A DNA stretch of 64,000 bases, taken from positions 496,001-560,000 of the forward strand of contig QPGO01000013.1 of assembly GCA_008632985.1 (NCBI GenBank), written 5' to 3'. This document shows, piece by piece, positions 13,664-64,000 of this stretch. The translations under genes and the position numbers were made by a program. The stretch is from Psammoneis japonica. Its lineage: Eukaryota. Position 1 is the stretch's first letter, and each line of letters starts with the position of its first letter. Below the pieces are notes generated by a model. That model was not told the origin of the DNA. It made no database searches and saw nothing but the letters and a program-made list of their open reading frames with translations.

Positions 13664-13846
13664 NNNNNNNNNNNNNNNNNNNNNNNNNNNNNNNNNNNNN
13701 NNNNNNNNNNNNNNNNNNNNNNNNNNNNNNNNNNNNNNNNNNNNNNNNNNNNNNNNNNNNNNNNNNNNNNNNNNNNNNNNNNNNNNNNNNNNNNNNNNNN
13801 NNNNNNNNNNNNNNNNNNNNNNNNNNNNNNNNNNNNNNNNNNNNNN
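13664..13846. other. Assembly gap (183 N)
   Basis: Run of N. Confidence 0.99.
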
Positions 13847-13849
13847 CCC

Positions 13850-35453: not shown

Positions 35454-35601
35454 TGTCCTTTCTTCTAAAGAAGGGGATATAGTTTGGTATAGAATAACAC
35501 AGCAGTTATATTGGACAGATGGACATGTTGCACATGGATCACCATTGTTTTGTATCGTAATAACATTCATTATTCACTGAAGGTGCGTCAATTAAACCGT
35601 G

Positions 35602-36148
35602 CTACACACCAACACCGCAAAAGGTTCCACAACCAGAACGCTCATACGACCAGGCTTCCTCTTTCTTCCACTTTTTGAATTCCTCAAAAGATATTTTTCC
35701 ATCTCGGTTCGAAAAAATGGAATTAAACTCACGGATATTATGGAACGTGTCAATGTCAAGGTCGAGCTCGGAAATAATTGCCATGAACCCATCAATGTCA
35801 AGGAAACCGTCTTGGTCGTTGTCGAACTTGCGAAAGTCAATAAACAGAATGGCGTCATCCATTTTGTTGCGGCAAACGCCTTCAATCCTTCTAGCTGGAT
35901 TATGACCAACACAAAAGGCAAGCAACCCAACAACCATGAGGATGGATCCAGCAATGGTCGTCTCGAGGACAGGATGGCTTGCTTGAAGCAATCCCAACGA
36001 GAAAAGGAAAAGGCCGCGACCCCATCAAAATCACACAAAGCTCAAATGCTTGGTTGTAGAATGCCGTGCCAATGTTGAAAATGATTTTGGGTCAGGGCTC
36101 CAAAGCTCACATGCAGGTCAAGTCTAAGGCGCCCATGATCCAAGAAGC
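35602..36148 (-). pseudogene. 3' part of a duplicated EF-hand membrane protein gene
   Basis: Near-identical to 52286-52828. In-frame TGA at 36025-36027 where the intact copy has TTA (LLWGRG). Homology stops at ~36148. Confidence 0.85.
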
Positions 36149-39100
36149 ACGTTGGTGGCATCATCTCCAACTTAAAGAGTTTCATTTCATGCACAATTGT
36201 GCTTGACCCAGAATGCAATTTCCAGGTGGCAAAGTGCTGCTCTTGATGAAGATCTTGGACAGTGATCATTGTCTCCCTGGTGCTGTTGCTGCAACAGTTG
36301 CCAGCAGCGTGAAATGCAGTTGCCAGCAGCATGAAATTTTGCAACGACACACTGCTGTTCACGATCAATGACATCCATCCATTCCAATTCAACTGACATT
36401 TCAGCCTTCTCCATGGCTTCTTGGATCTCAGGAGCCATGCGCTGTTTGGCTTCAATGCACAGCAATTTTACAAGCTTGACTTCCTTGGCTGGGTTGATGG
36501 GCACCAGAACCAATGCATCCATCTGAGTGAAGGTGGCCTTCATGGATCATTTTAACTTTCTTGGCACCTCTTCACATTCTTCTTCTTCATCATCTTCTTG
36601 CAGAGCAATGGTTCCTTTTCAAGCCTGGCTTTTGCAAACTCAGCCTTCAACTTTGGAGTTCTGCATCAGCTGATGCAGCTGCCAGGTTGTCTTTGTCATT
36701 GTTGGTGGCATTGCTGTTGTCAACAGCAAACAATTCAACAGATGACTCTGAGCCATCATTGTTGTCATTGCCATCATTGTCATCACAATGACTGCACCTG
36801 GAGGGGTGAGTTTCAAGGCATTCTGCTGTGGGAGTGCAGCAAGTTTGCTCCACAGTGGCTCACTTTGAATGCCACGGCCACTTCTGTGCCCTGACTCGGA
36901 GCCAAAAATTTGGCCAAAATCTTGTTTGTGTCCTTGGCAGCCAGCTGCACAAAATCATGATGTCCACTCGTGCAGCAACACATTCCACCACACAAGCACA
37001 AAACCAAATGCATGGAACTTTCTTTCTGAGTGTTGCAGTCCAAAACAGTGTGTCTTCCAGCTGCTTGCCCACAAATGTTGTTCTCTCTGCTGATCAGTGG
37101 GCCACACACCTTCTTGGGAGATTGGAGCATGTGCATGGCCTCTGCAATCACAGCAGATGGCTGGACAAACAAATCAATTGTTTTGCCCATGAACATTTTG
37201 ACAAACATGGAAATTCCAGCATCAAAGGAAGTGTGCAGGGTCATGGACCACACAGACCAAGGTCATGAACAATGAGAGAATCATCAGGGCCATCACCTTG
37301 AGACCAGGTCTTGTTGCTTGTGCTCCCATTGACATCATCTGAGGATCAGATTGACAGATGACAGACTGTGGGCTTGGTCTTCATCTGGATTGCTGAGCCA
37401 TTTGCACACTTGTGAAAAAGAAAGAAAGCATGGTGAGTGTGTTGACACAGTGCATGATCCTGAGAGATGTGAAACACACTCTCACTCAAATTGACAATGC
37501 ACCACCATTTTTAGGTTGAGAGCAGTTGGAAGGCTCAAAGGAAGCTCAGTGGTTTGAGAATTTTTCTTTTTGCTGGCCTTGTTTATCTTCTGAGTTTTGC
37601 CTGTTGGGAGAGCAAAGTGGGCAGGTTTCTTATGATGCAAGCTCTCCTGATGTGATGCATTTGCACAGATGATTTTTTGGTGGCAGCACAGATCAACACC
37701 AACTTGTGCAGATGCACACTCATTGGCATGGCTGACAGAGACCATGTGCACTGCCACAAGAAGAAATGACATCATCAGAAAAAAGGCTTGTCTGTCATGG
37801 AGTGCACTCACAATGCAAACTGGTTGAATGACAGTCATCAAGCTGCCACAAAAGGAGCAAGGAAAGTGCTCTCACTGCAAGGACAGAAAAGAGAAAACAA
37901 GCTCACCAGCGGCAGGTTGCACGGGGCATTCATGGAGTCAGCACTGTGGCATGGGGCATTTGCAGAGTTGGTGCTGCAACATGGGACAATCAGAGAGTTG
38001 GAGTGTTGTCACCCTTCTGTGTCCTTGGAAGAGGAGCACTCAAAAAATGACAACAACGTTGGTTGCTGATTGTCTCAAAGTGTGACAAGAGCAATCTTTT
38101 CCTCTCGTGGATTTGCTTTCACTGACTTGGGGCCAATGATGAAAAACAAGAATGAGCACAACAACAAAGAGGGGCAGCAAGAGGCAACAAGGCATCAGCT
38201 CTCACTGTTCATTCTTTTGTTGGTCTTTTTGTCCCATGACATGTGTCCCCCCCTGCCCTGCCCTTGCCTGGACTAGAAACAGATGGGTGCCGCAAGACGC
38301 AGTTGGGGTTTTGGGCTGACCACTTTCAAAATGACCAAATTTGCAAGTGGTCTTTGGTGTGCACAAAGAAGGAGTGTTCAATGACTTTCAAAGGCTTCAG
38401 AATTTGCTCAAATTCTGCTTTGTGCACAAATGCAAGACATGCCAAATTGTGAATTGGTCATTTTTTGGTTTGAAAATGATTGGCTCCTGGCCAGTCAATT
38501 GGCCACTTCTTTGTTTTGAGGTTGTTGCCACCCAGTTGCTTTTGTCTTTCAATTGTTCATCTCTGTCCATGTGGACATGACAGCACTTCTTTTCCATTGA
38601 GATGATGGATTTTTGGATTGTGTGCTTTTTGCATGCAAACTCACTTTCGAAGATCAACCCCCTTGTTTCTGTCCTCACAAAGACAGCCACACAATGCAAG
38701 CCCAGATTGTTGCCACATTGTCAAAAAGCAATGTCTGACAACAACAATCTTTGGTTGTGATGCCTTGCACAGTCATTTGCAGTTTTTGCAGCAGAAGCCT
38801 GCTGAGAGCACCTTCTTGCTGGAGCCCTCTTGTGCACCTGAAGTGACCAAGGAACTCACTCACCAGCACCAACAATGTGCCCTTTGTTTTCCTGCCATCA
38901 AGCTTCTTCCCAAGACAAAGTCACACTTTCTTGTTGTCACTCTCTAGACAGAACCACACAAACCCAGCTGTCTCTGTGGCCAAAGTTGTTCTTGGCTCTC
39001 AACTGTCCTCCCCGGAGCTTGTGTGCAGTTGCTGCATTGTTGCACAAAACTGGGAACTGGGGCATCTGCATGCTCTGACTGACTCTTGGAGTTCTTTCAT

Positions 39101-40165
39101 CAACAAGCCCATCACAGGGAAAAGAAAGTTTACAACACACATCTCTCTCCGTGGAGTCAGCACATGAAACAGACCTCCCCCCTGCCTTTTTCTCATGCCT
39201 CAAGATGGCGGGCTCTGCTTGTGAAACACAGGCTGACCTCACCCAACAACCACCAAACCTCATCAACTCCAAATCAGCCAAAGAAACACCTTCCTTCAGC
39301 CAGCACCCTAAAAAATGTCAACAGCTTTGTCAGCCTCCTTTTTCTCCATGTCCTCATTGAGGTTTTTATCATCAGGGCAGCCATGGCAGAGCTTGAGAAG
39401 CAGGCCCACATGCCTTGATTCATCCCCAGCTTGCTTGACAAAGCACCACCAGCAAGAACAAGCAACCTTCCAAGACACCCAAGAAGCAACCACCAAGTTC
39501 CCCAACGGGGCACAATGAGGAGGAAAAGTGGCCTCTGTGTCAGACAAAAAGGAGTCTGTCTTCTTTGCACTCAAATGACCAGCCAGTGCTTCAGTGGACA
39601 GCATTGCTTGGCTTGCTTCTGTGGACAGGGAAACAAGGTCCAATTCTCTGGGCACCTGCAAGGATGTGGGGAATTGATTGCTGGCAGGTCAAGGTTCTTT
39701 ACTTTCAGACATTGTCAAGAGAGTCAGTTTTGACAATGACAAAGATCAAAAGGAGAGTGGCTGCTGGTCCACCAGGACTTGTCCAATCACAGTGGATGAA
39801 AACACCACTGAATCACACTTTCAACTTTGTCAGCTTGTCAAAAGTTGGGGGTGACAAAGCACAACAAAGACAACAAGAAGCGCAACACAGAGCGTGTTGA
39901 TGACGATGACAAGCTGTTCAACGCTGCACTGCACTCTCCAACCCACTGCACCCAACCACTTGTGAAGGCTGTCCCTGCAGTTGTCAAGTTGATTGGAGTG
40001 GTGTGTGATGGTGAAAATGATGCTGACGAGACATTTTGTGATGCTGGCATGATGGGTGTGTTGCTGAGCCCTTGGTTTGTGGGCAATGAACATCCAAACG
40101 AAGCCCAAGAGCATTGTGGATGCCCTTCTCCCTTGGGGTGTTGAGTGCAATGTCACTAGTCAACA
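36100..40165. other. CpG/TpA-depleted degenerate domain 2
   Basis: Same dinucleotide signature as domain 1. Confidence 0.9.
36950..37225 (-). pseudogene. Degenerate ubiquitin-like domain gene
   Basis: MFVKMFMGKTIDL...GKQLED...LDCNTQKESSMHLVLCLCGG vs ubiquitin IFVKTLTGKTITL...[28 protein letters not shown]; frameshifted. Confidence 0.85.
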
Positions 40166-40478
40166 GCATCGAATGTTTTATCTCAGTTTGAAGACAATGA
40201 GCGAGACACAGCCGCCGTTCAGCGAAGCGTCCAATCCAGCTGCCGGCACGTGACGAATCGCATGTGGTCTCTCAGCGAGAGTCTGTCAACCCATCCGGTG
40301 CGCGGTTCCCAAATATGACGGGAACGAACTTATTTTTTTTGCAACCACCGACCACCGCACTGCGAGGGGAACACCATGCACCATGCATCAACCATCACCA
40401 CCACCGCACCGAGAAGAACCATTGATCATACCGGTACGGTAGTTCTTTTCTATTTTTTATCCCAACTTTTCTTTAAGA

Positions 40479-42261: not shown

Positions 42262-42566
42262 TTCTTCGCACCAACAATGCGCGCGTTCGCCAAAAATGTT
42301 CAGCGATGGGTCAAACTTTGTCCGTTCGCAAGATGTCAAGGTTCGGGATCTCTAGAACAAGCCAGTCAAACGCCAATTATCGGCCTTTCCTGGAAAGTTG
42401 CGGCTTGTCTACCATGAACAGTCCGATTCTGGCGAAAAACAGCAGTTCGTCGAATTTGGCAACCGCACCCAATGCGACAATCGGCGTTTGAAGGTTGACA
42501 AGTGTGGTTCATGTCAAGGTCTGCCAGCCCTGATGGGGGCTGGACACACACACAAGTGTTTGGGGG
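42262..42566 (+). repeat. Largely unmutated copy of the repeat at 13850-14160
   Basis: Alignment by eye; retains CG and TA in its left part. Confidence 0.8.
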
Positions 42567-42991
42567 GTGCTCAGATGCATCGCAAAATGACACGGGTGAA
42601 GTGCGAGCAAATTGCAGAATCACGAGCTGTTTGAAAAAAATGCCGCCAAACATCGATCCAGCCCCAATGATTGCAGTGTCAGTTGTTTTGTCACCCCCCA
42701 CTGTGCAGACCGGTTCAGTCCAGTGCACTTCCGATGTGGGCGCTGTGCGCCCCAGTCCGGACTGACCCATCTGACTGAATGACACCCCCTCCACGCAGAC
42801 AGGATTTTGTTGCACGTGACATCATCGCGCGCCCGCGTGACCACGACTTGAAGATTCTGTCTTGCGCATCCAATGCCCACACCAATCAAACCATCAAAGA
42901 CACAAAACCATCACCTCCCTGTCACCGTCTCTCTTGTCGTTGCCCTCTGCCGACACTGGACATGCGATGCGACACCACGACATCAGCCATG

Positions 42992-43429
42992 TGCAGCATG
43001 CATGCAGACAAAAGGTCATTTTTGTCATGCCCTTTGTGACATTTAAAGGCTGCAACACGTCGCCGTGATGCATTGACTCTTGTTGGTGGCTGTGTGTTGC
43101 ACTCCTCCCCATGTGTCATGCGTCCATGCGGCTCTTTGCTAATGTGTGCTGACACTGCACGGTTTTGGCAGAACAGTGTGGGTGCGTGCGAAGGAACACA
43201 CAGAACTGCACAGAGTTTTGTGCATTCGACAGTGATCAACGTTGCTGCAGACAACTCCCACTCAGGGTTTCGAACCCCTGGCCTCCTGCCTGATGGTTGC
43301 GATGAACCACTCCGCTGTGAATTCACAATGCAGCATGCACGCAGACAAAAGGTCATTTTTGTCATGCCCTTTGTGACATTTAAAGGCTGCAACATGTCAC
43401 CGTGATGCATTGACTCTTGTTGGCAGCTG
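42992..43429 (+). repeat. 101-bp direct repeat pair (42992-43092 and 43329-43429)
   Basis: TGCAGCATGCA.GCAGACAAAAGGTCATTTTTGTCATGCCC... is identical except at YR dinucleotides. Confidence 0.92.
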
Positions 43430-43439
43430 CACATTGCAC

Positions 43440-44204
43440 ATGGCGACCACCCGTCAAAAAGAAAAAGAGAGTTCTGAAGAAGCACCAAGGGACTCCACGA
43501 TGATGGATGCTGCTCCTGATGGCAGCAACAAGTCGGGCGGCAAGGCACGTCTGTTTGTGTGTGTGTCCGCCCCAATCAAACTGGTCTGTTTCCTGTCTTG
43601 CTTGTGTCACGCGGTGACACGCGCGCGGTGACCTGTTTTAAATGAAATGCCCGGTGACCTGTTTTTTAAACAAAGCTTTCTTTGGTCAAAACCTTTTCTC
43701 TCTCTGCGTGCACAGAGGAAGGCCACCCCTGCCAATGCTGCCATTGAGCCCACAAGGAAGAGCGCCCGCAATGCTGCACGCCTCAAGGCCAAGGAGGATG
43801 CTGCCAAGGCTGGCAAGGGCAAGGGTGGCAAAAATGCCACCACTGCTGCTGCTGCTGCTGCAAGCAGTGCCAAGGCTGGCAAGGGCAAGGGCGGCAAAAA
43901 TGCTGCTGCTGCAAGCAGTGCCAAGGCTGGCAAGGGCAAAGGTGGCAAAAATGCTGCTGCTGCTGCTGCTGCAAGCAGTGCCAAGACTGGCAAGGGCAAG
44001 GGTGGAAAAAATGCTGCCACTGCCAGCAGCGGCAAGGCTGGCAAGGGCAAGGGTGGCAAAAACACCACCACTGCTGCTGCTGCTGCTGCTGCTGCAAGCA
44101 GTGCCAAGGCTGGCAAGGGCAAGGATGGAAAAAATGCCACCACTGCTGCTGCTGCTGCAAGGGGGTGCCTTTTCCAAGCAAACCTTCATTTGATCCTCAA
44201 ATGA
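43440..44204 (+). pseudogene. Probable two-exon gene remnant encoding Lys/Ala/Gly tandem repeats
   Basis: Exon 43440-43544 (MATTRQKEKE...SGGK) joins in phase to 43716 (RKATPAN...) after a pyrimidine tract and CAG. The donor reads GCACGT. Confidence 0.5.
43803..44160 (+). repeat. Six tandem units GCCAAGGCTGGCAAGGGCAAGGGTGGCAAAAATGC-(TGC)n-AAGCAGT
   Basis: Directly visible; translates as AKAGKGKGGKN(A/T)nSS. Confidence 0.95.
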
Positions 44205-46200
44205 CAAAAATCCAGCTGACATGAAAACAGGAAGCTCAAACAAGGCGTGGGTGCAGCCCAGCAGCATCAACGCCGCCACATCTTGGAGGATGACAACACG
44301 CAACTGTTTCAAGAGTCCAACAAAGGCACATGCCATGGGGTGCTCCGGGCAAGTCACACTCCTTCTGCCATGCCTTCCAGCCAAGGAAAGATCTCCTTCT
44401 GCAATTCATCTGAAGGCTGACAGAGGGCACGTGAAACAAAGTGGGTTCCAGGCTCCTTTGCGAAGCCAGCTGCAACCCTCATCGCCTGGAATTGTTTGGT
44501 TAAAACAAAATGTGAGTTTTAATTAAAAGTGAAACAGGCCACACGCAAGTGCAACAACTCACCTTCAAGGGCAGCTTTGTGGAGTGGTGAGCATCAAACA
44601 CACTTGGGTCCCAATTTCCAAGAGCTTTGATGAGATGAGACTCCAGCTCCTCCAACTCTAACTCAACTGTGTCTCCAACATGTCCAAAGTGCAAACTGCA
44701 GTTGATGAGCAGGTCAAGCCATTCTTTCAAATGATCAAACCAAGCAGTGTAAGATGACGGAGACATGCACTGTGTGTTGGGTGAATTGGTGCCATCTCCA
44801 GAGGATGTGCCAGCCTTTTGAACGTCCACAAGGAGCTTGATGTTCCACCATGTTTCCTTCCATTTGAGATTAATCTTCTCCCATTCCTTGCTGATCTCAA
44901 AGCGTCCTGTGTTCAAAAAGAATTCCAGCAACAGTTTGCCCAATTAAAACGTTTTGTAAAGCCAAAACAATCAGATGTGGTTGGATGCGCACTGAGCAGA
45001 TAAAGACCCAGTGCACCAATGGAGTCCATTCTCACATCTCTGTGTCACATGACATGGCCAAACAGCGTGCTTTTGCCATTGGTTTTGCCTGTGAACATCT
45101 GCATGATGAGCACCAGGTGGGCCTGTTCCTCCTTCCTTGCCTGATGACTGAAGCTGCGAAGATCACTCAGGTCAGCCTTGAGGGGAGACTCCCCACGGGA
45201 AATGGCTTGCTTTGTGTGCAGCATGAAGAAACGGTTGCACAGAGCAACTGTTCCATTCAGCAATGTCCCAGAAGAATGTTCCCAGCAACCCTCCTCCAAC
45301 TCTGGGAAATGCTCATGGGCCAGGCAGGGCGACATGTCACCAGAAACCTGACCGGGTTTGAGGTGGACAACACAGCACAGGTCAGCGGTTTTAAATGAAA
45401 ATGTGAAACACATTTTGATCAAGACTCACCTTCTCATCCATCTGTTTCCATTTCTCTTGTGCTTTCCTGGACTTGACAAGCCTCTTGAGATGTCTGATGC
45501 TGCTGGAATTTTCACAACGAAGCAACACAGCAGGATCTCTGCCATGTGTTTCAAGCTGATGAACAAAGAGTCGTCCAAGGGATGCACAAGCCTGGTTGAC
45601 AACATCCCACTGGCACAGCTTGTTGGGTTTGCTGACACCAGCTTCTGTCTGGTCAAGCAGCTCAGTCTCGTTTGGAATGTCCACTGCATCAGTCAAGGGA
45701 TTGCTGGCTGTCACCCTTTCAAAGAGCTCAACATCAAAGATTGGCCTGGTCTCTCCCTTCTTTGCCCTGCCCCTCTTCTTTTGTTGGCAAAAGGCACAAC
45801 GGAACAGGCAAATGAAGGCTTTTTGCTCATCAATCAAATGCTTGGTGTCTCCCAATGAGGCATGCTTGTGGTTGCATGTTGTGCAGAACTGGCTCTCGTG
45901 TCTGCCAGAACAATTTAATTAAAACAGGGGAGAGGGTCAGACAAAAACTTTAATTAAAACACATCATCAAAATGCAGGTGTGACAAGGGTTCAATTAAAA
46001 CTTGCACCTTCATTGCTTTCTTTGTGTTGTTGTCTTTGTTGCCCAGGTCATCGTGCATGTCACGCACCAATCTTGACTGCTGAGCAAAAGCGTCAGAGGT
46101 GAGCTCATTGGAAGCCCCCATTGCAGCCATCCCAAGAGTGGCTGTGGAATTGACAACAGGGTCTCTTGGCATTTTGGACCGGTCATTGTGATGCAATGCA
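44200..46200 (-). mobile_element. Degenerate Crypton-like tyrosine recombinase (Ndc10 domain II-like) element with introns
   Basis: MFTGKTNGKSTLFGHVM..H, LHFGHVG...IKALGNWDPSVFDAHHSTKLP and LLKQLRVVILQDVAA...HALFELPVF fit the Crypton/Ndc10 pattern. GTGAGT donor near 44560. Confidence 0.7.
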
Positions 46201-47899
46201 GAACAGGCTGACGACGCCAACAATGACGGCGGTGCTGTTGTTGTTGTGGTTGTTCTTCTCGTGCATGGTTGCAGGGAAGCCACTTGAAAAGGAGTCCTGA
46301 GATGGAATCCCGATGTCCGGCGCTGCGTGGCATGCAATCTTGACGTCAAGTGCTGAGCCCAGCGAAACAACTGCAATTGTTTGCACAAGTCTTGTAAAAC
46401 AATTGGATCATTTTTACAAAATTGCTTGGGGCCCCACATCACCAGTCCGGTCCGGGGCCGGTCCGGACCGGCCGGTCTGCTGAACACAATGAATGAAAAC
46501 ATGCAAAGAATGATGCACAGACGTGCACCAATTTTGGTTGTCGATCGCGATTGATGAATGATTCGCCAATTGCAAGCTGATTGGGCATGATTTTTACAAT
46601 GTTTGCACCACTTCTTGCAGACGCAGGTCTCTCACCCCTTCATTTGTCCGGTGTCCAGTCTGACTTCAAACCACATCCCTGCAGGTGCAACCATCAGGGA
46701 CGACCGTTGGGGAGCCCCCCTTCATTTTCCAATGGATGGCTCACAGTTTTTTCACAGCAACTTTCTTCATTCCTTTGCAACTCAATTGTCAACATGTTCC
46801 CACGCACAACTCTTGCTGCAGTGTGGTTTGCCTGTGTCAGCTCACCCTTTGGGTGTTCCAAAAAAAGCATCTTGAGGGAGCCTGGTCAACATCAGAGGCT
46901 GCAGTGCAGTGGTTTGCACTTTCCTTTGTAAATTTTTTAATGTGCATTGTCAAAATTGTTAACAAGCAGAATTTAAAAAATGCCAGCAAAAGTGCTCAAC
47001 AACATGCAGCTGTTTTTTGCATTTCATCTGATGTCTCATTAACTTTTCTTGCACAAACTTCAATCAAATGCATGCAATGTTCAATTTAATTGGGATCGAC
47101 ATCTGTTTTTTGTGGTGCATGGTTTAGTTTCCTTTCAATCGCAATCAATTTGAACTTGGTTTTAACTTTGTCCTCCTCACTCATGTGTGCATGTCTTTGC
47201 ACATGTGCAGTCTGCTGCACATGCAGCACTTCACACACGCACGTGACCCACCTTCATTTTTCTTCATGTTTCCCAGATTTGCACAGCCCGTTGGTCTGCA
47301 GCATTTTCAGCACATTTTTTGCATGCGCAATTTTCTGCACACTTCATGATGGCACACCCTCACCCCAAAAGTTGAAAAACGAGAGCGTGCGCTGTTGTGG
47401 TTCATGTGGATCCTGCGTGTGATCGCAAATCTGCAAATCGACAACCGGCCATGGTGGTGAAAGACTTCACCCCATTGGCCGATGACAGCAGCTCAATGCA
47501 TGGTGAAACCTGCTGTCCTTCTGGCTGGTCAAGATGGGTTTTGATTCAGGCACAGCTTGAGTTTCATGATGCGACTGTGCTGTCACGAATCCACCATGTC
47601 GAAGAATCATCATGCCGAGCTGGCATGTCATCATGTGCACGCACATCACAAACTTTTCTGCAGCATTGGCAAATCATGCATGTCAGAGTTTTGCATCCAG
47701 AGTCATTGCAAGTGGCCACAAATGACGCTCTTCAAACAAGGCATGTGCAAAAAGAGGTTCATTGGTTTTTGATGCGTTCATGCCAACAACGCATCCGTCT
47801 TCTCCAATTTTTATGTCCAGATCCAGAAAGACGACCGCAGATGTGCTGTGGCCACTGTTGTTGTTGCCATCGTGTTGTTGTTGCTGTCACCATTGTCGT

Positions 47900-48890
47900 C
47901 ACACATTTAGAAAGAGGGGCGCACATCCAAATCTCATCACATGTGAAGTTGTTTTCTGGTGCTGTCTTGGTGCATCTGCTGAAGTCCACCATGCCCAATG
48001 TGTTCTCCAGGGGATGGTTGACCATGGGTCATTCTGTCATTGCTGTGCAAGTGTTTGTGCTGTTGGTGGTCTTGTGGAGTGCCAAAGTTGAAGGTGTGGC
48101 TTCCACATGTGCTGAGCTTTCTTTGTGTGGTTTGCCAACATGTCCGCTGCCTTCTGCAAAAGGGATTCTTTGGACATTGTGTGCCTCTTTGTGCACTTTC
48201 TCCAGTGCTCTGCATGCCCCCCCATGCTTTGATCATGAGTTTCCCTGGGCCCTTCTCTGATGTTTGTGCTTGCTTCTTTGTGATTGCCAGATCACCTGGA
48301 TGGAACTTGTTGCCTGAACGGCTCTTGTTGGTGAGGGTTTGGTGGTGGTTTCTGCAATCTTTGATGAGCAACTTCAATGCAAGTTGCTGTTTTGCCAGGA
48401 GAGGGAAAGTCACACTCACATGTTCTGGCACTTGTTCCCCCTGATTGGTGTTCTCCAGTGGAACTGTTGCTTCTTGGCAAGTGTCAACAGGAAAGGGAAA
48501 ATCATGTCCCATTGCTGCTCTGCTGCTTCCAACAATGTTTGTGCCTTCCACTGGTCCATTCTTTTAAGGATTGGCAGTCTGCAGTTTGTGTGCACTCTGT
48601 CTTGTTCAGATGTTGAAAATGCCTCTCACACAAAACAGCCTTGTGGTGTTTTCTCTTGTTGCTGTGCAGGCTTGCATGCCCAGCAGGCCGCACAGTTGCA
48701 GCGCCAACCCGGCAAACTGTCAACCTGCATCCACAAGCGCAAGTCTTGGTGAACTGCAGAGGGCAGTGATGCCATTTAACTCCCACACCAGTGCAGACTG
48801 GAGTGCTGTCAGCAGCATCTCTGCTGGGCTTGTGCCTCTGGATGGCAAGCCTTGGGCATCATGGTGTTGTCTCCGTCAGCATCATTTAAA
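47900..48890 (-). mobile_element. Degenerate Ty3/Gypsy-like integrase C-terminal region
   Basis: EGTNIV...AAMGHDFPFPVD and FHPGDLAITKKQAQT...GPGKLMIKA resemble integrase C-terminal motifs; frameshifted. Confidence 0.5.
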
Positions 48891-49422
48891 TTAAACACAA
48901 ACAACAAAGTGGAATGTTTGCAATGCAAATGATTTAATTTGCAGGTTTTGCAAGATTGGAGGGTGGGCACTCTCACAGGGAAAATGGTTGGCTGTTTCAC
49001 AGTGAATGGTGTTGCCTCGTGGGACAGCGCTGGGCTCCATGGCAACAAATTTTGTCTTTCACAGTTGACAAATTATCACCACGTACACAGCTGCCAAGGT
49101 TTGAAACCACAGAATTTTTAATCACAAAAGGAAAAAATGTCGCCATGAGAACAGAGGTCTGGATCACTGCAATGCGTGCTCTGATGAACTCCTGGCTGCA
49201 TTGTCTTGCGCAAGCAACTCCCTTGGGACTGCAGCGGTGCTTGGGGCCAGTGGGAATCTAGACAACTGGGGAGCTTCGGACAGTTTTTTGTTTCAAGGAT
49301 TGGACCCAATGAAGCGGTGTCTCTGACTGCTTTCTGTGGGGCTTGAAAGGTGTCCAGTCCAAATTTTGAGAGCTGTTTGGATCTCATCCATGAGTTTTTT
49401 AGCAGCTTGTGGGGATGCTTTC

Positions 49423-49770
49423 TCTCTCTTGATCTCATCTGAAACAGAAAGTCCAGGGCAGCCATTTCTTTGTTGCTGCTGTCATCCATCTTGCTGGCAT
49501 CTGGAGGAGTGTGTGTGGATGGTGCTGCCTTTGGCACCTCTTTCTTTTTGCTCCCTCAAAATGTCTCATGGTTGTTGTTTGTTGTTGCTTTTTTCGTGAC
49601 AGCCAAAGCCCATCAAAAACCTGCAGCTGGGCCAGCTCCAAGCAAGCTCAGCTTGGCTGCTCTGCACTGAGATGGGATCTTGAGGCATCAAGAATCTGAA
49701 CCTCTTTGAACACCATCAACTCTCAAAATGCTGTTTCTTTTACAAATGTTCAAAGAAGAGCAAAAAAGTG
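49423..49770 (-). pseudogene. Hypermutated 5' end and upstream region of the EF-hand membrane protein gene
   Basis: PKAAPSTHTPPDASKMDDSSNKEM vs PKAVPSTYTPPDVNEMDDSSDEEM; aligns to ~53234-53560. Confidence 0.85.
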
Positions 49771-50199
49771 GAACAAACATTTGCCAGCAATTTGCAGTTT
49801 TTGGAATGAATGTTCCGGATGTTTTCCTGGCCATTTGACTGAATTCAGTCAATTTTGAGGAACTGGCTGCATTTGAAAAAAAAAATGGTTGTTGATGCCA
49901 TCTGATGCATGAAAACAATCCATTCATGCCTGAACAACAAAGCAGCACCATTGGATTCATCAAAATGAGCAAAACAAAGTCAAAAAACAAGCTTTTTAAG
50001 ATGGTCATGTTGCGACGGAAAGTTTCTTGCCAAGTTCAGTGGCCACTGCAAGTTTGTTGCTCCGCCTCTGACAAATCATTTGCAAAGCAACTGCTGCATC
50101 AAATGACACCTGGGCCACAAGTGCAGTGTGTGCAAACCCTCCTTTGGCATGTGCTGTGATGATTTCTGCACCTTGGAATTTTTTTCTGTGTGTGGCAGG

Positions 50200-51300
50200 G
50201 TGGCAAGCCTGCAAGTCAACAATGATGATCTGGGGCTGTGTCTTGGTCTTTCATCCTCTTCTCTTGCAAGATGATCATTGAATGTGAGATTGTGGGCAAA
50301 CAGCTTGCAATGTTCAAGTTGCTCTGGGAGTGGATCATTCCAAAAGTCCCGCAAGGCAACAATTCACTCCAACTGCCCCAAGAATGAAAGCATGGGGATG
50401 ATTTGGTCACCACCTCATGCCCAAAGTCTCCTCCAAACTGATTGGACTCTGCCCTTGTTGTGGTCATCAACAGCATGGCTGAATTTGTTGGGATGCTGGA
50501 AGGTGTCGTGCCAGTTCTTGCCATGAACAGTGCACAGCCAAGTCTTCTGTCTGCCAACATGCTCATTGGTGTTGCAAAAAGACATGAGCATCACAACATG
50601 GTTTGGCTCTTTTGTTGCAAATGCATTTGCTGGTGCATTGTTGAGAGTGCCTGCAATGGATTCAGCATTGCTGGCCTGCTTGTCATTGAAGTGCGCAATG
50701 ACTTCATCCCTCTTCTTTGTGTTCCTTGGCCACCAATGCTGATGCTTCTTTGTCAATGCCATGGCAAGCTCACCTTTTGTTCAAAGCTCTGCAATCCCCC
50801 AAAGCACACAAAAGCCACTGTCCAATGCAACAACCTTGGCACTGTTCCAAATGGGTTTTGAGAGTCAAAGCAACAGCCCAGCCATTTTGCCTTTGTCGTC
50901 ATCATGCTTGGGTCTTGGTCTCTCCTGTGGTGCTCATCATTGCCCTCCACCAGCTCAACAGCATGCATTGCACAAGACAATCCACAGCATCTGGCATGAC
51001 ATTCATTTCTAAATGGCTGCAGCTTCCTTGGACAAAATGCAAAGCCAGGGCAGGTGTGTTGGTTCATCCAAATGGACACAGACTCATCAATGCAACTCAC
51101 TCAGCTTGGAGTGAAGTTCTCCATCATGTTGTCATTCCAAGCTTAAATCATCTGCCTCACTTCATGGAAAGGATCATTTTGCAAATTGGGGCCTGCTGAT
51201 CTGTGCATCAGATGCATCTTGGGATTTCCTCAAACCTGTTACATGACATGAGATTACAAAGTTAGAGTGGAGTGCTGTCAAACCTTGTGATTGCCTTGGT
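50200..51300 (-). mobile_element. Degenerate piggyBac-like (DDE_Tnp_1_7-type) transposase
   Basis: CIDESVSIWMNQHTCPGFAFCPRKLQPFRNECH..CCGLS...VELVEG, KKHQHWWPR, KEPNHVVMLMS, AVDDHN. Confidence 0.8.
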
Positions 51301-51466
51301 TGACCAAAAGCCACTGTGCCATGGACCTTGAATGGCAGCCATCAAAAACCACATGCTGATCCAATGCAAGCACTCACCATGCTGCACTCTCTCTCTCTCT
51401 TTGCACATCATTTGCATCAATCTGGGGAACAATTGTGCCCAACACAAACAACTTTGAAAAGAACAA

Positions 51467-52133
51467 TCCATGCTGGAAGATGCAGGCTCATTGTCATTGT
51501 CCTTGTGCCACTGCCTTTGGTTCGTGCACTAGAACAGCATGCCAATGAGTTGTGGAGTGTTTGCACCAACATGCACTGTGGAAAAGGCACCATCGGAACC
51601 ATGTGTTTGTGGCAAAAGGAGCAAACACTCATGGTGGGGTGCTTTCTTGTTTGCAATCAAGTTCACAATGATGATGAACTGTTGGAATGGAACAGCCTTC
51701 ATCTCATCAGTGTGACTCCACAGCAGGATGGTGCAAAGGCCAAGCACACTGTGAATTCGTCAGCATGGGTGGTTTTGTGTGGCAAGCAAGAAGCCAGCTC
51801 ATCCGCCATTTCTGGAGCCTTGCATCACAAGCTGGTCTCCAAGATTTGTGCCTTTGGTGCTGCCACGCCTTCAAGTCATGTAAAGAACCTGGGTCCAACT
51901 GTGGAATCCATCGACAGTGACTTGAGATCCAACATGCACTCTGTCTGTCTCAGCAAGACACTGCAAGTGGCAGAATCCACCCGAACGCCAACAGATGGTG
52001 GGATTGTCAAGCCAACCAAGAAAAAGGTTCCAGGTGGGATGCCAATGGTGGGTTTGGGAGCTGGAGGAGCAGAGCATGCCGCAATGATGAATCAGGCCAT
52101 TCTTCGCGTAAACTCAAAAAGACAGGTATCGAG
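51467..52133 (+). pseudogene. 5'-truncated, hypermutated copy of the capping protein beta gene
   Basis: Colinear with ~34785-35453. VYTDMYYGKGAVGSVYLW has become VCTNMHCGKGTIGTMCLW. 1-nt deletion near 52105. Confidence 0.92.
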
Positions 52134-52285
52134 TAGTGTACTTTCGTCTAATAAGGCTACAAACCATGATAGATTTTTTATCACAGGATTTATATTGGAC
52201 AGATGCCCATGTTACACATGGATCACCATTGTTTTGTATCGTAATAACATTCATTATTCACTGAAGGTGCGTCAATTAAACCGTG

Positions 52286-53377
52286 CTACGCACCAACACC
52301 GCAAAAGTGTCCACAGCCAGAACGCTCATACGACCAGGCTTCCTCTTTCTTCCACTTTTTGAATTCCTCAAAGGAAATTTTTCCATCTCGATTCGAATCA
52401 ATGGAGTTAAACTCACGGATATTATGGAACGTGTCCATGTCAAGGTCAAGCTCGGAAACAATTGCCATGAACCCATCAATGTCAAGGAAACCGTCTTGGT
52501 CGTAGTCGAACTTGCGAAAGTCGATAAACAGAATAGCGTCATCCATTTTGTGGTGGCGAATGCCTTCAATCATTCTAGCTGGATTGCGACCAATGCAAAA
52601 GGCAACCAATCCGACAAAGATGAGGATGGATCCAATAATGGTCGTCTCGAGGGCAGAATGGCTTGCATGAAGCAATCCCAACGAGAAAAGGAAAAGGCCG
52701 CGACCCCATAAAAGTCGCATAAAGCTCAAATGCTTGGTAACGAAAAGCCGAGCTGATGTTGAAAATGATTTCGGGTCTGGGCTCCTAACCTCACAAACCA
52801 AGTACAAGGCGCCCATGATCCAAGAAGCCACTGCAGTCATGCCGTGAGAAATCGTTGTCCAGTTCAAACCCTCACTTAGATACTGGTCATACACGACAAG
52901 AACGCTTGTTAAGTACATTGCAGTCACTGCACAGATACAAAAGTAGCGAATCACCATTGGTCCGTCTTCGGCACGTGACCTTAGCTTTTCGAGTTGCTTG
53001 CTCTTGGAAATGTCCTTGTCGACTGCGATACGTTCCGCCTCCATTTCAGATCCTTGGTAAGGGATTTCCTTCTTATCAGGATCTTGCACTGATTTCACAT
53101 CTTTGTGGGCTACAGATGGACTCGCGATGGCGGAGGGACCCTTTGGTTGCTTGCCCGACAGCACAGTGTCCGTCTCCTTTTTCGGTCCGGAAGCCGCCTT
53201 CTTTTCTTGGTTCTGGTGATTGGAAGCTGCAGCCTCTCGATCGCCTGAAATAGAGTAGTCCAGTACAACCATTTCCTCATCACTGCTATCGTCCATCTCA
53301 TTAACATCTGGAGGAGTGTATGTGGATGGTACTGCCTTTGGCGCCTCTTTCTTTTTGCTCCTTCCAAACAATCTCAT
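52286..53377 (-). CDS. Multi-pass membrane protein (COPI-associated/Tvp15-like) with two C-terminal EF-hands (intact copy)
   Basis: About four hydrophobic segments; FMRLLWGRGLFLFSLG; DYDQDGFLDIDGF and DSNRDGKISFEEF. Confidence 0.85.
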   Translation of the reverse strand: MRLFGRSKKKEAPKAVPSTYTPPDVNEMDDSSDEEMVVLDYSISGDREAAASNHQNQEKKAASGPKKETDTVLSGKQPKGPSAIASPSVAHKDVKSVQDPDKKEIPYQGSEMEAERIAVDKDISKSKQLEKLRSRAEDGPMVIRYFCICAVTAMYLTSVLVVYDQYLSEGLNWTTISHGMTAVASWIMGALYLVCEVRSPDPKSFSTSARLFVTKHLSFMRLLWGRGLFLFSLGLLHASHSALETTIIGSILIFVGLVAFCIGRNPARMIEGIRHHKMDDAILFIDFRKFDYDQDGFLDIDGFMAIVSELDLDMDTFHNIREFNSIDSNRDGKISFEEFKKWKKEEAWSYERSGCGHFCGVGA

Positions 53378-53958
53378 GGCTGCTTCTTTCACGACAGTCC
53401 AAGCCTATCAAAAACAGAAGCTCTAGCTAGACTAGTTCCAATTGAGTTCAATATAACTACTCTGTGACTAGATGGGTTCTTGAGACATTAATCTGCAACC
53501 TCTTTGAACAACCAAACACTCGCTCTGTTCACAAATTTCAACTGCGAAGAGCAAAAAGTGAAAGGAACCTTGGCGATCGATAGTTTTAAGTGAATATCGC
53601 GCTTCGAATGTTAAATCATATTTGGCGATACAAAAATAGTACTTTTCTTGTGACTCGAGAAGCGTTGGGGCAATAATAAAATTTCAATATTATTATATTT
53701 GAACGTATATATATTCCAAGTCACTAATGTTTCAAACGGACGTGATTATGAACATACCGTACGGAAAAGCGCGGGAAAAGACTTCGTCTGTTCCGCGTCG
53801 GTGAAACACGTACTTTTCGCTCATGCTCTTCAGCTTCCCGCCACCTCTCACGCACGTCATTCGCATCTGGAGAATCTTGTCAGCCATCACCGCACATCTT
53901 TAGTCTGTATCACTGCCAACATCGTCACAATTATTTGAAATCACCGTTTGTGTTTGCC

Positions 53959-59188: not shown

Positions 59189-59440
59189 TTACAGTACGGC
59201 GCGCCCTCTACTCATCTTCTTCTGAGTGCAATCGGGGTCAAGTTTCATGTCCGTCTGACAAAGCCATTTGTCGCCTTTTTTGACGTTACAATCCTCACAA
59301 CATAAGACATAGTTCTTAGCTAAGTCTAATCCGTGAGAGTGGCTTCTCGGAATTACATGATCTATGGTGGCGTTTCTTTTGCTTGGTTCTAAGCAGAGCA
59401 GTGGTCGGCACACGTGTTGCACACAGTGCAAAATGCAAGA
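59189..59440 (-). pseudogene. HNH endonuclease domain fragment at the domain boundary
   Basis: TIDHVIPRSH...NYVLCCEDCNVKKG; upstream part lies in TA/CG-depleted DNA. Confidence 0.7.
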
Positions 59441-62400
59441 GATTCTGAAGACCAGACAACACAGGCCAACACAGCCTCTACTCTCTAGAGTGTCAAAGCT
59501 GGAGTCCTGCAGGTTGGCACACAAGAAAACGTGCAGTGCTCTACCAGCAGGAATGTCAAAGCAGCTGTGGTGGCACTCTCCTTGCTGCTGCTCCCTCTCA
59601 CCTCCTCATGTCTTGCACTGTGGCATTTTGCAAAAAAGCACGCTCTGACGATGCGACTGTTCAGCTGCACAACAGTGGAGTTAGAAGCAAACTGTGGAGG
59701 CATTTCAACCACCTGTGAGTCCCACAGGACAATGCTGAAGAACAGCCCAAGCTGCTGGCGTGGGGGCAGGGTTGGGGCTCTGAGCAGCTCATTTCAAATG
59801 CCTGCCTCATGATGTGAAACTGATCTTTTTCCCAAAGAAGCCAGGTGGAGAGAAAACAGCACTTTGTGCAGGCTTTTGTTGGGCAACAGCAGCATTAAAC
59901 AGAGCTGACTGCAACAGCCAAAACATGGGCTGTGTGCCATTCTGACATTGTTTTTCTTTGTGCTCTGTCAACCATGCCACCTTGACATTGTTCTTCTCTG
60001 TGTTCCTTTCCTTTTGTCAAAAAAAATCTGCAGCAGTTGTCTGGTGGTGCAACAATCTGACAATGCATTTTTTGTTTTCATTTTAAAATTTCTTGCACGC
60101 TGTGATGCAAATCTTGGTTCTCTGATTCAATTGTTTTTGTCGTGTCGCACACAAGAAAATTCAAATGCAATGAGCACACGGATGATGTTCCTGACAATTT
60201 CAAGTGCAACACTTGGTTGCTTTTCACTGTGCAACAAATTGCTTTCTGTTCTCATTCTGACTTTCAAAGGACATCCTGTCTTCAATGAATTTTTTGTTGT
60301 TGAAACTGTGAGTTGAACTCCAGTCATTTTTGCTGCTGTCATCATGTGCTGCTTGCCAGCAAATGCTGCCACTCTGCTGCCTGTGTGGTCATGTGCTCCT
60401 TGTCCACTGCTGTGAGTTGTCACTTGCTTGGCCTGCTTGCGTGGAAGTGGCTGCAGTTGTCTGCAGGTGCTGCTCCTGGAGTCTCTTCCTCTGAATTCCC
60501 ATGTGCATTGTCACCTCCCTCCACTTTCTCATTGCTGTTGCTCTGGCCAGTTTTTGGAGCAGCCCACCCCTTTGTTCTTTCCTTTTTCTTCCTCTTTCTT
60601 TTGTTGCCACATGCACTCTCTGACACTTCTTCATCTGCAGGCACTGTCCATTGACTCTGTTGCGCTCCTGGTCAGCTCCTTTCTCTCTTTTTCTGCTGCG
60701 TTGAACAACTCATTGCATCTGTTGATTCCACTCTGGTTCCATCCTTGATTTCTCTTTGCATTCTTCCTTTGAAAGGTGTGCTTGGGGGGGGGNNNNNGGG
60801 GGGGGGCAAAGGCTGTCTTGTTTCTTCCACTCTTCCATGTCTTTCTTCTCCTTGTGTTGTGGCTCCATTTCTGCTGTTGCTGCAGCTGTCTTGCAGTGAT
60901 TTTCATGCATTAGCCTGGCAAAAGTTTCTGTGCTTGTTGTCCTCAGCCAATTGCTGGTGTCTTGGTTTGCTGCCATCTCAAACTGCTCTGTTCCAGCTGC
61001 CATGGAGTGGCAGTTTTCTGAGAACCAGAAGTGCGTGCATGGCAACTCCCTGCCCTTTTTGAAGTTGTCAACAGCTTTTGGGCTGTCATCTCCAGCCAAA
61101 GCCAAGCAAGAACAAATGGGTGAGGAGCAGTCTTCTCCATTGCATTTCGACACCACCTGCATTGCATGCACCAACCATGTTTTTCCCAAAAACCTCCTGT
61201 CTGTTGTTTTGTCCCCAATTTGGTCTTTTCTTTGCTTCTCCTTCTTCTGTTCTTGCCAAACTGCACAGTCACTGTTGGCCATGTTGAGGTGTTTGCAAAC
61301 CGTTTTCTGCATTTTACTGCCAAAAGCCAACTTGACCTTGTCACATGTCATGAACTTGCTCTTTGGGTGCACTGCCATTGCAGTGCAGTCAGCTCTCATT
61401 TGACCATCCACAAACTTCCTTTTTCAGCTGCCTCTGAGCTGCTGACTGACATCCCTGCAATCTGCACATTGCGGGACCCCATCTCTGTGTGTCATGGGCA
61501 CTGACTGCAACCAAAAACACAACCTGTGTTGGCAGCCAAACCCACATCTGTCTCAGTGTTGCTTTCACCACAATGCATGCACCTGGTGAATTGTTTTTCA
61601 CCAACATGTTTGCCCATGCATTTCCACAGTGTTGTGTCCCCAAGATTTGTTTTTCAGCATTGACCGCAGGCCAATCGCACCTGCCAGCACAGTGTTGGCC
61701 TTTCTCTTTTTTTGCTTCTCCTCTTTGAGTGCCAAAATTTTCAAATGGCTCAGTTCACAACATCAATGCACACATCATGGCATTGTGTTTGAATGGCATT
61801 TTTTCCAATGCTGCAGCTCCACATCACATGTCCACAGTTGCATGCAACACACAAAGAACAACAACACTGCTGCTTTTTTCATGCCACATTTTTTCAAATG
61901 GGTTGCCAATTCAACAAATTTTCAGATGCTTTTGTCAATTCACTGAGTTCCAGCTCAGTCTCATTTGGGCTGAGGCTGTGCAACTAAAAGGAGCTGCAGT
62001 CATGCTGCTCCAAACCTGTGATCTTGGTTGGCTTGTGACGGGAACTTTCAGCACTTGGTTTGCTGTCTGGGACCCCATGCTCTTGGACCTTGCTCATCAT
62101 CTCTGACCCTTCTTCCTTGCTCATCTTGGCCCGTGTTGACCTGCAAACTTGGAACAAGTGCTTGAGACAAGGGTCCAATCCCATGTGATGTCCCTCCATT
62201 GCCAACTGGACACATGCACAGTGCACCCTCAATCCAATGAGTTTTTTCTCTTTGCAAAACACCATGTCTCCACTGACTGCAGGAGGAAACCAATCATTGA
62301 TCAGTTGGTTTTCCAACACCCTGTCATGTTTTTCCAGATGAACTGCATCTGTCATTGTTTGCTCATCCCTGATGTTGAATGGCTCCCACACATGTGGTGG

Positions 62401-64000
62401 CAGAGAGCACACACAAAATTCTTGGGAATCTGCAAGTCTTGTCTCCTGGCTTGCACCCAATCACTGTGGTGCAAGGCCGATGCTGCCAGGTGTGCAGCTG
62501 CTCCACCACTTTCTGTTTGCTGAAACTGAAGATCAAAGCATCTCTGTCCAGGTGTTCATCAAAATGGATGCATCTGTTTCTCACAAATGTTTCCAAAAAA
62601 TGCATCTCACCAGTGCTGTTGAAAGTCTTGCCATCTCACAGCAAAATGAAAATTGAATTTTTGATGGCCACAGCATGGCCCACTTTTGTCAAGCTCATGG
62701 TGTGAATGGAGTGGCATGAAACTTGCCATGCACTCTCTGTGCAACCACTGCACTGGCTCAGCAGGCCTGTGCTTGTGCGCCAAAGCAAACCTTGGATCAC
62801 CCATGTCACTGTGCATCTCTGTGCATGCATTGTCATCCACAATCACCTGTTGCAAAGTGTTTGTTGTGTGATGCCACATGCATTTCTTCACTTTGTCCAT
62901 TTTCAAAAGATTTTTGTGTCAAGACAAGAAAAAAAACATGGTGAACAAGGCTTTCTGATTGTGCCAGGTTTTCCAGCTCAGGCAATTGCAGGCATTGGGA
63001 ACAGCACCCTGGCAACTCTGCCACAGTTTGTTTTTTGATGTTGTTCATCACTCTCCAGTGACAACTTGGCATTGTTGTTCTCTGTTGTGTTTCTTTTGCA
63101 GTCCAGCTGCATTTTGCAATTGTGGTTTTGTTGCCAGAGGGGCAGCAGTCATGATTTTTGCCAAACTCAAAATTTTGGTGGGGGGGCAGCAGCCACACCA
63201 TTTGCTTGTTTGAAAAATGTGGTGTCTCAATTTTCATGATTGAGGTGCGTTGTTTGTGTGTTCTGCATTTTGTGCAATGAATGACATTGAACATTCAAAA
63301 CTGTGCTTTTTTGTGTCAAATGTTGCTCAAATGGTGCATGAAATTTTGATCATCATTCTTCATTGTGTCATTTAATTTCCATTGAATTTGTGGTTGAATG
63401 AAATGCACTGTTGCCAAAATTGGTGACCCACAATTTGTCATCACCCTTGGTGACAAAAGGAGAAACAACATCATCAAATGGTTTGGAAACAAATTCTTTG
63501 TTGTCCAGGTGTGCTGGCACTCTGAAACATCATTGGCAGCTGGCCAAATGGCAGTGTCATGAGAAAGATGTGGCTCTCACACTTGTGCCACTGCACGATT
63601 GGATCTCAGTGGCCAGGGATTGTGTTGCAAGTCCACAAGACAAATGTGGCATTGGAGTGAGATCCCGTTGCAACCATTTCAACAGGAGGAGGGGCAAAGG
63701 TGGCTGGAAGAGGCAATGGCATCACCTGATTCTTTGGATTCTCTTGTTTGCAGCTGTTTGCCATGAGCATCTGTCAACTCATTGCCTGAAACACCACAAA
63801 TGCATTGAGAAAAGGAGAGTTTGCAGAGCAAACAAGCTCTGAGGTGATGTTAAAGACCAATTGGGAGGAAACATTTGCCGCAAATGGGGCAATCATTTCC
63901 TGCGGCAAAGGAAGGCATCATTGTTCATGCTGCAAACAGAGTGAGATGGAGATGTGTGGGAAGCAAAAATGAACAAAATGTGAGCCATGTGGCAAAAGCA
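59390..64000. other. CpG/TpA-depleted degenerate domain 4 (runs off the window; 5-N gap at 60793-60797)
   Basis: Same signature; fragmentary minus-strand coding remnants I cannot name. Confidence 0.9.

Follow-up and report, generated by a model that had tools for sequence, protein, structure and literature searches.

Domain-limited loss of TA and CG dinucleotides from a duplicated CapZ-beta fragment in the diatom Psammoneis japonica

A 64,000-bp stretch of the genome of the diatom Psammoneis japonica (contig QPGO01000013.1, positions 496,001 to 560,000; hereafter the window) carries a segment of 1.36 kb, 34785-36148 (copy A), that is duplicated at 51467-52828 (copy B) with 87.6% identity over 1370 columns by BLAST. 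Both copies represent the 3' ends of two convergent genes, one for CapZ-beta and the other for an EF-hand/COPI_assoc protein, and in a part of copy B nearly all the TA and CG dinucleotides of copy A are missing. The question raised by this locus is in which direction, by what kind of change and within what limits these dinucleotides were lost. The positions of the features described below are collected in Table 1.

The initial annotation was based on two 54-base strings, 34875-34928 and 51559-51612, which were found at these positions with 12 differences between them and with a decrease of TA from 5 to 0 and of CG from 6 to 1, as claimed. Over the whole CapZ-beta part of the duplicate (668 aligned bases), 83 mismatches were identified, of which 59 are transitions. 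Three of 17 TA are kept and 12 were converted to TG (seven) or CA (five); eight of 33 CG are kept and 22 were converted to TG (12) or CA (10), and both strands contribute about equally to these products. The loss had been assigned to the interval 51467-52133, but it is not spread evenly there. It is confined to 51467-51960, where 13 of 14 TA and 25 of 28 CG were lost, with TG or CA as the product at 33 of these 38 sites (11 of the 13 TA). In the other 868 bp of copy B (51961-52828), 18 of 26 TA and 28 of 31 CG are kept, and the difference between the two parts is significant for both dinucleotides (Fisher's test, p=2e-4 for TA and p=3e-10 for CG).

Within 51467-51960, 43 of 92 TA/CG sites differ between the copies compared with 24 of 400 other sites (odds ratio 13.7, p=1e-19). 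These other sites, with 13 transitions and 11 transversions, are diverged by 6.0%, and those in the remainder of the duplicate by 7.8% (55/704), indicating that the general mutation rate was not raised. The unmutated half does not owe its state to recent gene conversion, because its ordinary sites are as diverged as those of the mutated half. The edge of the loss lies at 51950-51982: positions 51900 and 51950 mark the last losses and position 51982 the first retained CG, and a single stray TA-to-CA change was found at 52031. The change thus ends within about 30-80 bp, inside the dead CapZ-beta fragment and not at a gene edge. The stop codon of the EF-hand gene is about 300 bp away, and in the non-coding DNA between (51982-52285) all eight CG and 11 of 16 TA are kept, as counted by hand from the site list. 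Coding selection is therefore no explanation for the edge. From the survival of 1 in 14 TA and 3 in 28 CG, and with a background of about 3-6% for the copy-B lineage, we estimate the rate of loss at roughly 20-40 times the background per dinucleotide or more, since saturation allows only a minimum to be given. There is hardly any doubt that the description of the loss in copy B, as given here, is correct.

The direction of the change was examined at the protein level by aligning ten outgroup CapZ-beta proteins and counting their residues at the sites of difference; four rows (positions 20-25) were dropped, since the non-homologous upstream translation of copy B was aligned there spuriously. 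At the sites of the copy-B replacements Y98C, Y102H, Y103C and Y159H all ten outgroups carry Tyr, and at Y112C seven carry Tyr and three Phe. For the replacements derived from CG, A107T, V111M and V146I, the residue of copy A is found in eight, nine and ten of the ten outgroups, respectively. Counting the columns in which at least five outgroups share the state of one copy, copy A is favored in 16 and copy B in two (L79V and V108I, the latter a 5:5 tie). The alignment includes 18 invariant columns. The Cys and His states of the 51.5-kb copy, which in the outgroups would have spoken for the opposite polarity, were present in none of ten, and the proposal that the conserved tyrosines mark the 34.8-kb copy as ancestral was thus borne out. 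In addition, the 34.8-kb copy is an expressed and spliced gene: in a sequencing run whose contigs behave like RNA contigs (X2), a spliced contig spans 34584-35499 and continues upstream for a further 249 nt, ending in exon 1; no run with this DNA is listed as RNA. Taken together, outgroups and expression favor copy A as the ancestral state at the informative sites.

Is the mutated DNA host DNA? PF01115 was detected in ten of ten database relatives of the CapZ-beta parent, with a top identity of 39%. The fragment in copy B is truncated at the 5' end, missing the first 92 codons, carries a 1-bp frameshift near its end, and runs directly into unmutated host sequence, so that it is neither a transposon nor a retrocopy. 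The contention that a host gene copy is affected was confirmed in this form, as a 5'-truncated gene fragment; that transposons are affected as well is suggested by the neighboring DNA, which is multi-copy as judged by depth. On the 51.5-kb CapZ-beta fragment and the EF-hand gene no X2 contig was found, which was taken as evidence neither way. The simplest history is a duplication of about 2.1 kb carrying the CapZ-beta 3' part together with the convergent EF-hand gene and its promoter. By the same account, about 13 kb of inserted DNA then interrupted the EF-hand gene of the upstream copy, which retained its working CapZ-beta gene. The downstream copy retained a working EF-hand gene, and its CapZ-beta is dead and 5'-truncated. 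A larger duplication unit was considered and dropped, since no homology was detected between 49784-51466 and the aldose-epimerase gene or region to the right of 53574.

The same change was observed in a second host-derived pair. A duplicate of the 5' end and promoter of the EF-hand gene, detected by tblastn through the match of residues 16-50 with 49552-49448, is 71% identical to its source and keeps none of 16 TA and none of six CG, of which 11 and four, respectively, became TG or CA; the divergence elsewhere is 41 of 281 sites. Repeats in the window were compared with contigs from a run of short-read type (X1), in which a k-mer depth of about 60-75 represents single-copy DNA, and the counts cover 40 of 75 variant places. 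Other copies have CG where the window has TG or CA at 16 places and TA where the window has TG or CA at ten. Six further places are three CA-versus-TG doubles between copies, as expected when one ancestral site is resolved differently in different copies. The reverse direction (CA in other copies, CG in the window) was found at two places and other kinds of change at six. These variants indicate that the changes arise after insertion, copy by copy.

The extent of the depletion was determined by two-state segmentation and by 1-kb and 250-bp profiles. Four TA-depleted domains make up 33,515 bp, or 52% of the window, and the CG-depleted segments are nested inside them. Observed/expected ratios are about 0.6 for TA and 1.0 for CG in normal DNA, genes included for TA, and about 0.03 for TA, 0.1 for CG and 1.9 for TG/CA in depleted DNA, with G+C content unchanged and with TG and CA counts balanced in every domain. 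Part of this DNA is repeated, with a depth of about 29,000 at 42468-43795, 1500-3200 at 46452-47779 and 450-740 at 37820-39147, but the depleted stretches 35996-37819 and 48998-51942, and both host-derived fragments, are single-copy by depth. The depleted DNA may be of transposon origin, as its copy number suggests; among 115 open reading frames (ORFs) of at least 110 aa, none matched a transposon or viral Pfam family, the hits being HNH and two others below the curated cut-off. The domain edges are located a few hundred bases (roughly 300-650 bp) from the ends of neighboring genes that are expressed or intact. The 15-kb depleted domain ends about 500 bp before the start of the GAPDH frame, another edge precedes the expressed ORF at 40443 by about 400 bp, and a third, about 400-500 bp upstream of a SET-domain gene, cuts through an HNH-like ORF. 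This ORF keeps TA and CG in its 3' part, and beyond about 59450 its upstream continuation is depleted and rich in Cys and His.

The two losses can be separated. TA was lost and CG stayed at normal density in four segments, 1151-1977, 13393-13604, 42411-43779 and 46180-46705, the largest of which is a high-copy repeat. Compared with another copy of that repeat, the window copy of 43097-43322 keeps one of at least seven TA and ten of at least 14 CG. The reverse pattern, CG lost and TA kept, was found in no segment of the window. TA loss is thus faster than CG loss or independent of it, and the CapZ-beta pair shows both because both ran to saturation there. The earlier statement that TA loss is about as efficient as CG loss is true only of the end state in that pair (93% and 89% lost); other parts of the window have fully lost TA at a CG density that is still normal.

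The sequence context differs as well. Surviving TA number 92 in 29,954 bp of depleted DNA and 1185 in 28,502 bp of normal DNA. Survivors in depleted versus normal DNA are 35 versus 53 for TTAA, 25 versus 91 for CTAA/TTAG and 16 versus 143 for GTAA/TTAC, and none remain in ATAT (0 versus 95) or ATAC/GTAT (0 versus 197). These counts were fitted by a per-strand additive model in which the 3' neighbor of the A on each strand determines how often that A is hit. The hazards were 0.18 for TAA, 1.26 for TAG, 2.31 for TAC and 3.28 for TAT (likelihood ratio against uniform hazards 195.7 with 3 degrees of freedom [df]; residual deviance 5.9 with 6 df). For CG, the hazards were 1.40 for TCG, 0.95 for ACG, 0.79 for CCG and 0.58 for GCG (likelihood ratio against uniform hazards 45.2 with 3 df; residual deviance 8.6 with 6 df). 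The spread is therefore 18-fold for TA and 2.4-fold for CG. In the direct pairs, all five TTAY sites went to TG (two-sided sign test p=0.06).

Two context-specific transitions have thus come near to completion within the domain, A-to-G at 5'-TA and C-to-T at 5'-CG, on either strand. What has to be explained is a change that has a direction and a dinucleotide specificity, is symmetric between strands, ends sharply, does not depend on homology, also strikes host DNA and consists of two separable arms. We consider it probable that two processes are at work, a TpA-specific A-to-G hypermutation limited to domains, like that of the chlorarachniophyte Bigelowiella natans, and the decay of methylated CpG. 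The TA arm would be an active and locally targeted hypermutation, most likely the enzymatic deamination of adenine in DNA. Deamination of adenine to hypoxanthine yields A-to-G changes. The 18-fold dependence on the third base, strand by strand, points to an enzyme recognizing about three bases on one strand, and this enzyme would read 5'-T-A-Y. The CG arm may represent deamination of 5-methylcytosine in the same methylated and silent chromatin, as suggested by its weak context dependence and its slower course, for which the background divergence leaves time. The target would be set by chromatin domain and not by sequence origin or homology, as we infer from the positions of the edges, and host DNA caught inside such a domain would be mutated as well.

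In mutation-accumulation lines of B. natans (Mettrop et al., bioRxiv 10.64898/2026.01.13.699255, 2026), 230 of 231 mutations were A-to-G or T-to-C, all at TpA; they arose at about 6e-7 per site per generation and were located in two integrated viral regions that are silent. The same source describes 124 clusters in the B. natans genome that are depleted in TpA and enriched in CpA+TpG, and suggests an ADAT2-like deaminase as the cause; no C-to-T excess was observed, and its main text is without mention of CpG, diatoms or flanking bases. The present locus is similar in that TA is converted to TG or CA on both strands in confined regions, that other sites are unaffected, and that clusters of the same composition are left. 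It differs in several respects: the host is a diatom, a stramenopile; CG was lost in the same domains (as in 51467-51960); host gene fragments were hit, so that the origin of the DNA is not the criterion; the depletion is deeper, with TA observed/expected of about 0.03 compared with 0.45 in their nucleocytoplasmic large DNA virus (NCLDV) region; the edges are sharp to tens of bases; and a 3'-neighbor rule (TAT > TAC > TAG >> TAA) is visible. The rate in B. natans, about 1000-fold above background in the same source, was measured in living lines; the pair described here gives a lower bound of about 20-40 times the background. In a literature search, no report of joint TA/CG depletion or of TpA hypermutation in diatoms was found; the 'hypermutation' of the SPLASH paper concerns antibodies and does not match.

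Known RNA and DNA editing enzymes offer partial likenesses. ADAR converts A to I with a preference for a 5' U, APOBEC converts C to U, and both edit retroelements; the natural target of TadA/ADAT, A34, follows U33, and the context of TadA is UAC. An A preceded by T or U and an A-to-G outcome are thus shared by ADAR, TadA and ADAT with the TA arm. ADAR, APOBEC and TadA/ADAT, however, act on RNA or on single-stranded replication intermediates and mark one strand, whereas both strands of chromosomal, non-retrotransposed DNA were hit equally here. The CG arm resembles the methyl-CpG decay of vertebrates and plants in its conversion of CG to TG or CA on both strands, its occurrence in silent, repeat-rich DNA and its weak dependence on flanking bases. 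Such decay accounts for the CG arm only, and the methylation assumed for this locus is presumptive. Transposons of diatoms are CG-methylated (in part after PMC9998398).

The strongest alternative is a single process for both losses, either a deaminase acting on both A and C or a TET/JBP-type oxidation of T and 5-methylcytosine; in the latter case, the oxidized 5-methylpyrimidines (5-hydroxymethyluracil and 5-hydroxymethylcytosine) at palindromic TpA and CpG steps would mispair afterwards. Such a process would explain why both losses share the boundary at 51950-51982 in copy B, why CG-depleted segments are nested in TA-depleted ones, and why TA and CG, both self-complementary pyrimidine-purine steps, have the same TG/CA products; moreover, ADAT2 enzymes are reported to edit both A and C, as cited in 10.64898/2026.01.13.699255. 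It would have to accommodate, however, the four segments of complete TA loss at normal CG density, the repeat copy that lost six of seven TA but only four of 14 CG, and the contrast between 18-fold and 2.4-fold context dependence. The TpA process of B. natans, according to its preprint, ran without C-to-T changes, and methyl-CpG decay at 15-40 times the background would by our own estimate remove about 90% of CG given 6% divergence. On balance, a single process is unlikely.

A defence that recognizes duplicated DNA by homology, like the repeat-induced point mutation (RIP) of fungi, would agree with the finding that the mutated sequences are duplicates or multi-copy repeats. Fungal RIP likewise ruins repeated or foreign DNA by context-specific transitions, can reach adjacent sequence and leaves unrecognizable transposon remnants. 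Diatom DNMT4 is related to fungal RID, its function being unknown according to PMC9998398; it might be a lead for the CG arm. Fungal RIP, however, is a C-to-T change, typically CpA to TpA, that creates TA, whereas TA was destroyed here (14 before and 2 after in 51467-51960). Homology triggers RIP, and both copies are then mutated. Here no part of copy A was mutated, neither copy is mutated over 868 bp of the duplicate (51961-52828 in copy B and 35282-36148 in copy A), and the depleted stretches 35996-37819 and 48998-51942 are single-copy. The process at the CapZ-beta duplicate is not RIP, and a RIP-like defence of any kind is very improbable.

The non-functional state of the CapZ-beta fragment and the mild under-representation of TA even in the genes of the window (observed/expected about 0.6) might suggest that a pseudogene decayed in the ordinary neutral way, or that dinucleotides were under selection, for example through avoidance of CpG and UpA in transposon RNA. 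Sites other than TA and CG are, however, no more diverged in the mutated than in the unmutated part, the unmutated non-coding DNA of 51961-52285 retains all CG and most TA, and copy A shows no depletion in its EF-hand fragment (35602-36148), which is neutral; the mutated host fragment, being contiguous with an unmutated flank, lies outside any transposon transcript. These internal controls contradict decay or selection of this kind, and the probability of this explanation is marginally lower still than that of homology recognition. Least probable of all is an artefact in which modified bases were misread as TG or CA: strand-discordant miscalls at symmetric modifications could by our own reasoning give symmetric products, but the fragment carries indels and transversions too, the sized N gaps in the window are typical of short-read scaffolds, and the depleted 48998-51942 reappears in X1 contigs of single-copy depth (about 70) with one 18-bp insertion at 50487 as the only difference, as does 35996-38335 without a differing letter at a depth of 75, which argues against a base-calling artefact, though X1 is probably the source of the assembly itself and its support not independent.

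Several observations weigh against two separate deaminations targeted by chromatin. Deamination of adenine and of 5-methylcytosine as the causes is something that we infer from the sequence, and the depleted domains are taken as silent chromatin from their position. The only run containing this DNA, X1, may be the assembly's own source. The context model takes the gene-rich DNA of the window as the ancestral composition of the depleted DNA, and in the direct pairs the fractions of strand-sites hit (TAA 2/9, TAG 5/18, TAT 6/14 and TAC 9/17) agree with its trend but weakly; one ATAA site in these pairs went against the 3'-neighbor rule. For CG, the pairs (CCG 0/13, GCG 8/15) agree poorly with the survivor fit, in which GCG is slowest. 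Since no C-to-T excess was reported for B. natans, the coupling of TA and CG loss lies outside the known phenomenon, and one process acting at both palindromic pyrimidine-purine steps is a possible alternative. In 51467-51960, finally, one TA and three CG are new, the latter having arisen by A-to-G or T-to-C changes from CA or TG; the process may be inactive there now, or these sites may be recent.

So far, a single report, the 2026 chlorarachniophyte preprint, describes locally targeted A-to-G hypermutation of chromosomal DNA. The present locus extends the signature of TpA hypermutation to a diatom, a member of a major and genetically tractable group of phytoplankton, and, with one half of a duplicated segment lying within the affected domain and the other half beyond it, carries its own natural control. 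It follows from this arrangement that the change is specific to TA and CG, leaves the general rate unraised, is not triggered by homology and follows the position rather than the origin of the DNA. The TAY-favored, TAA-spared motif is strand-specific and can be tested with candidate deaminases. Tentatively, and with somewhat less than even confidence, we propose that diatoms possess a chromatin-domain-targeted, DNA adenine-editing defence at 5'-T-A-Y of either strand, which would erase TpA faster than methylation erases CpG, would be shared with chlorarachniophytes and perhaps be ancient in the stramenopiles, alveolates and Rhizaria (SAR), and would be blind to host or foreign origin with its edge set by active genes. 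If this is true, it would continually turn transposons and trapped duplicated genes into TA- and CG-free sequence with only TGA stops.

An immediate consequence concerns annotation. As TA disappears, TAA and TAG stops are lost and only TGA is left, so that long spurious reading frames arise; the window has 119 ORFs of 110 aa or longer, the 115 compared with Pfam among them, in which Cys, His, Ala, Gln and Trp are frequent, and those of depleted domains are easily mistaken for genes. In depleted domains, for instance at 2001-13600, long open frames were observed in all six frames, and a 294-aa ORF at 47376-48257 looks non-protein-like. The genes of the window are long and nearly intron-free.

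Table 1. Positions of the duplicated segment, its genes and the depleted domains in the window
Feature	Position	Strand	Basis or remark
Intact CapZ-beta gene (PF01115)	34408..35453	+	ORF; PF01115 in 10/10 homologues
CapZ-beta exon 1	34408-34482	+	ATG at 34408
CapZ-beta intron	34483-34583	+	GT..AG
CapZ-beta exon 2	34584-35453	+	stop at 35453
Copy A ('before'): CapZ-beta 3' part (functional), intergenic DNA, EF-hand 3' fragment	34785..36148	+	BLAST, alignment, ORFs
EF-hand gene 3' fragment in copy A	35602-36148	-	
Copy B: CapZ-beta fragment and 3' part of intact EF-hand gene	51467..52828	+	BLAST, alignment, ORF
Hypermutated part of copy B ('after')	51467..51960	+	TA 1/14 kept, CG 3/28 kept
Unmutated non-coding remainder of copy B: CapZ-beta tail with frameshift, intergenic DNA	51961..52285	+	site-by-site list
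Intact EF-hand/COPI_assoc gene	52286..53404	-	372-aa frame, Met at about 53377; Pfam EF-hand_5/6/7 and COPI_assoc
Second 'after' copy: mutated duplicate of EF-hand 5' end and promoter	49426..49784	+	source 53234-53574
TA-depleted domain	1151..16097	.	CG-depleted over 1978-15949
TA- and CG-depleted domain	35902..40313	.	starts just past the end of copy A
TA-depleted domain holding both mutated host fragments	42411..52108	.	CG-depleted over 43780-46179 and 46706-52079
TA- and CG-depleted domain	59543..64000	.	edge inside HNH-like ORF
Repeat at roughly 400 times single-copy depth, TA-depleted, CG density normal	42411..43779	.	depth about 29,000; bin counts
HNH-endonuclease-like ORF	59192..59605	-	Pfam HNH, E=1.5e-7

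A phmmer search with the HNH-like ORF gave 76 weak hits restricted to the HNH motif of about 50 residues, none with E<=1e-10, and the type of element was not indicated. The GAPDH gene (16599-17741) is intron-less and of plastid type (GapC1-like), 91-93% identical to diatom proteins including those of Phaeodactylum and a Bacillariaceae genome. A metagenome scan with this GAPDH recovered 79 loci, mostly bacterial or short transcripts; the combination of TA observed/expected below 0.2 with TG/CA above 1.5 was found in none of their 1455 one-kb windows and in 61 of 125 here, a weak control that is uninformative on other diatoms. The ORF at 40443-42197 is single-copy, encodes 584 aa with no Pfam match, is covered by an RNA-type contig over 40453-41951, and lies in a 2-kb island whose composition is normal, with a depleted domain on either side.

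The high-copy repeat, taken as 42411-43800, is bounded by direct repeats of about 95 bp (42993-43085 and 43331-43425) and contains a tRNA-like stretch (GGTTCGAA-type) at about 43240-43310; ARAGORN called no tRNA gene, this stretch included. The repeat may be a tRNA-derived short interspersed nuclear element (SINE), and an X2 RNA-type contig matches 43097-43322 with 12 differences. Next to it, inside a TA- and CG-depleted stretch, lies a tandem array (43802-44146) with a period of 111, 2.9 copies, 86% matches and a sub-period of about 51, which would encode Lys/Gly/Ala-rich repeats (…AKAGKGKGGKN…).

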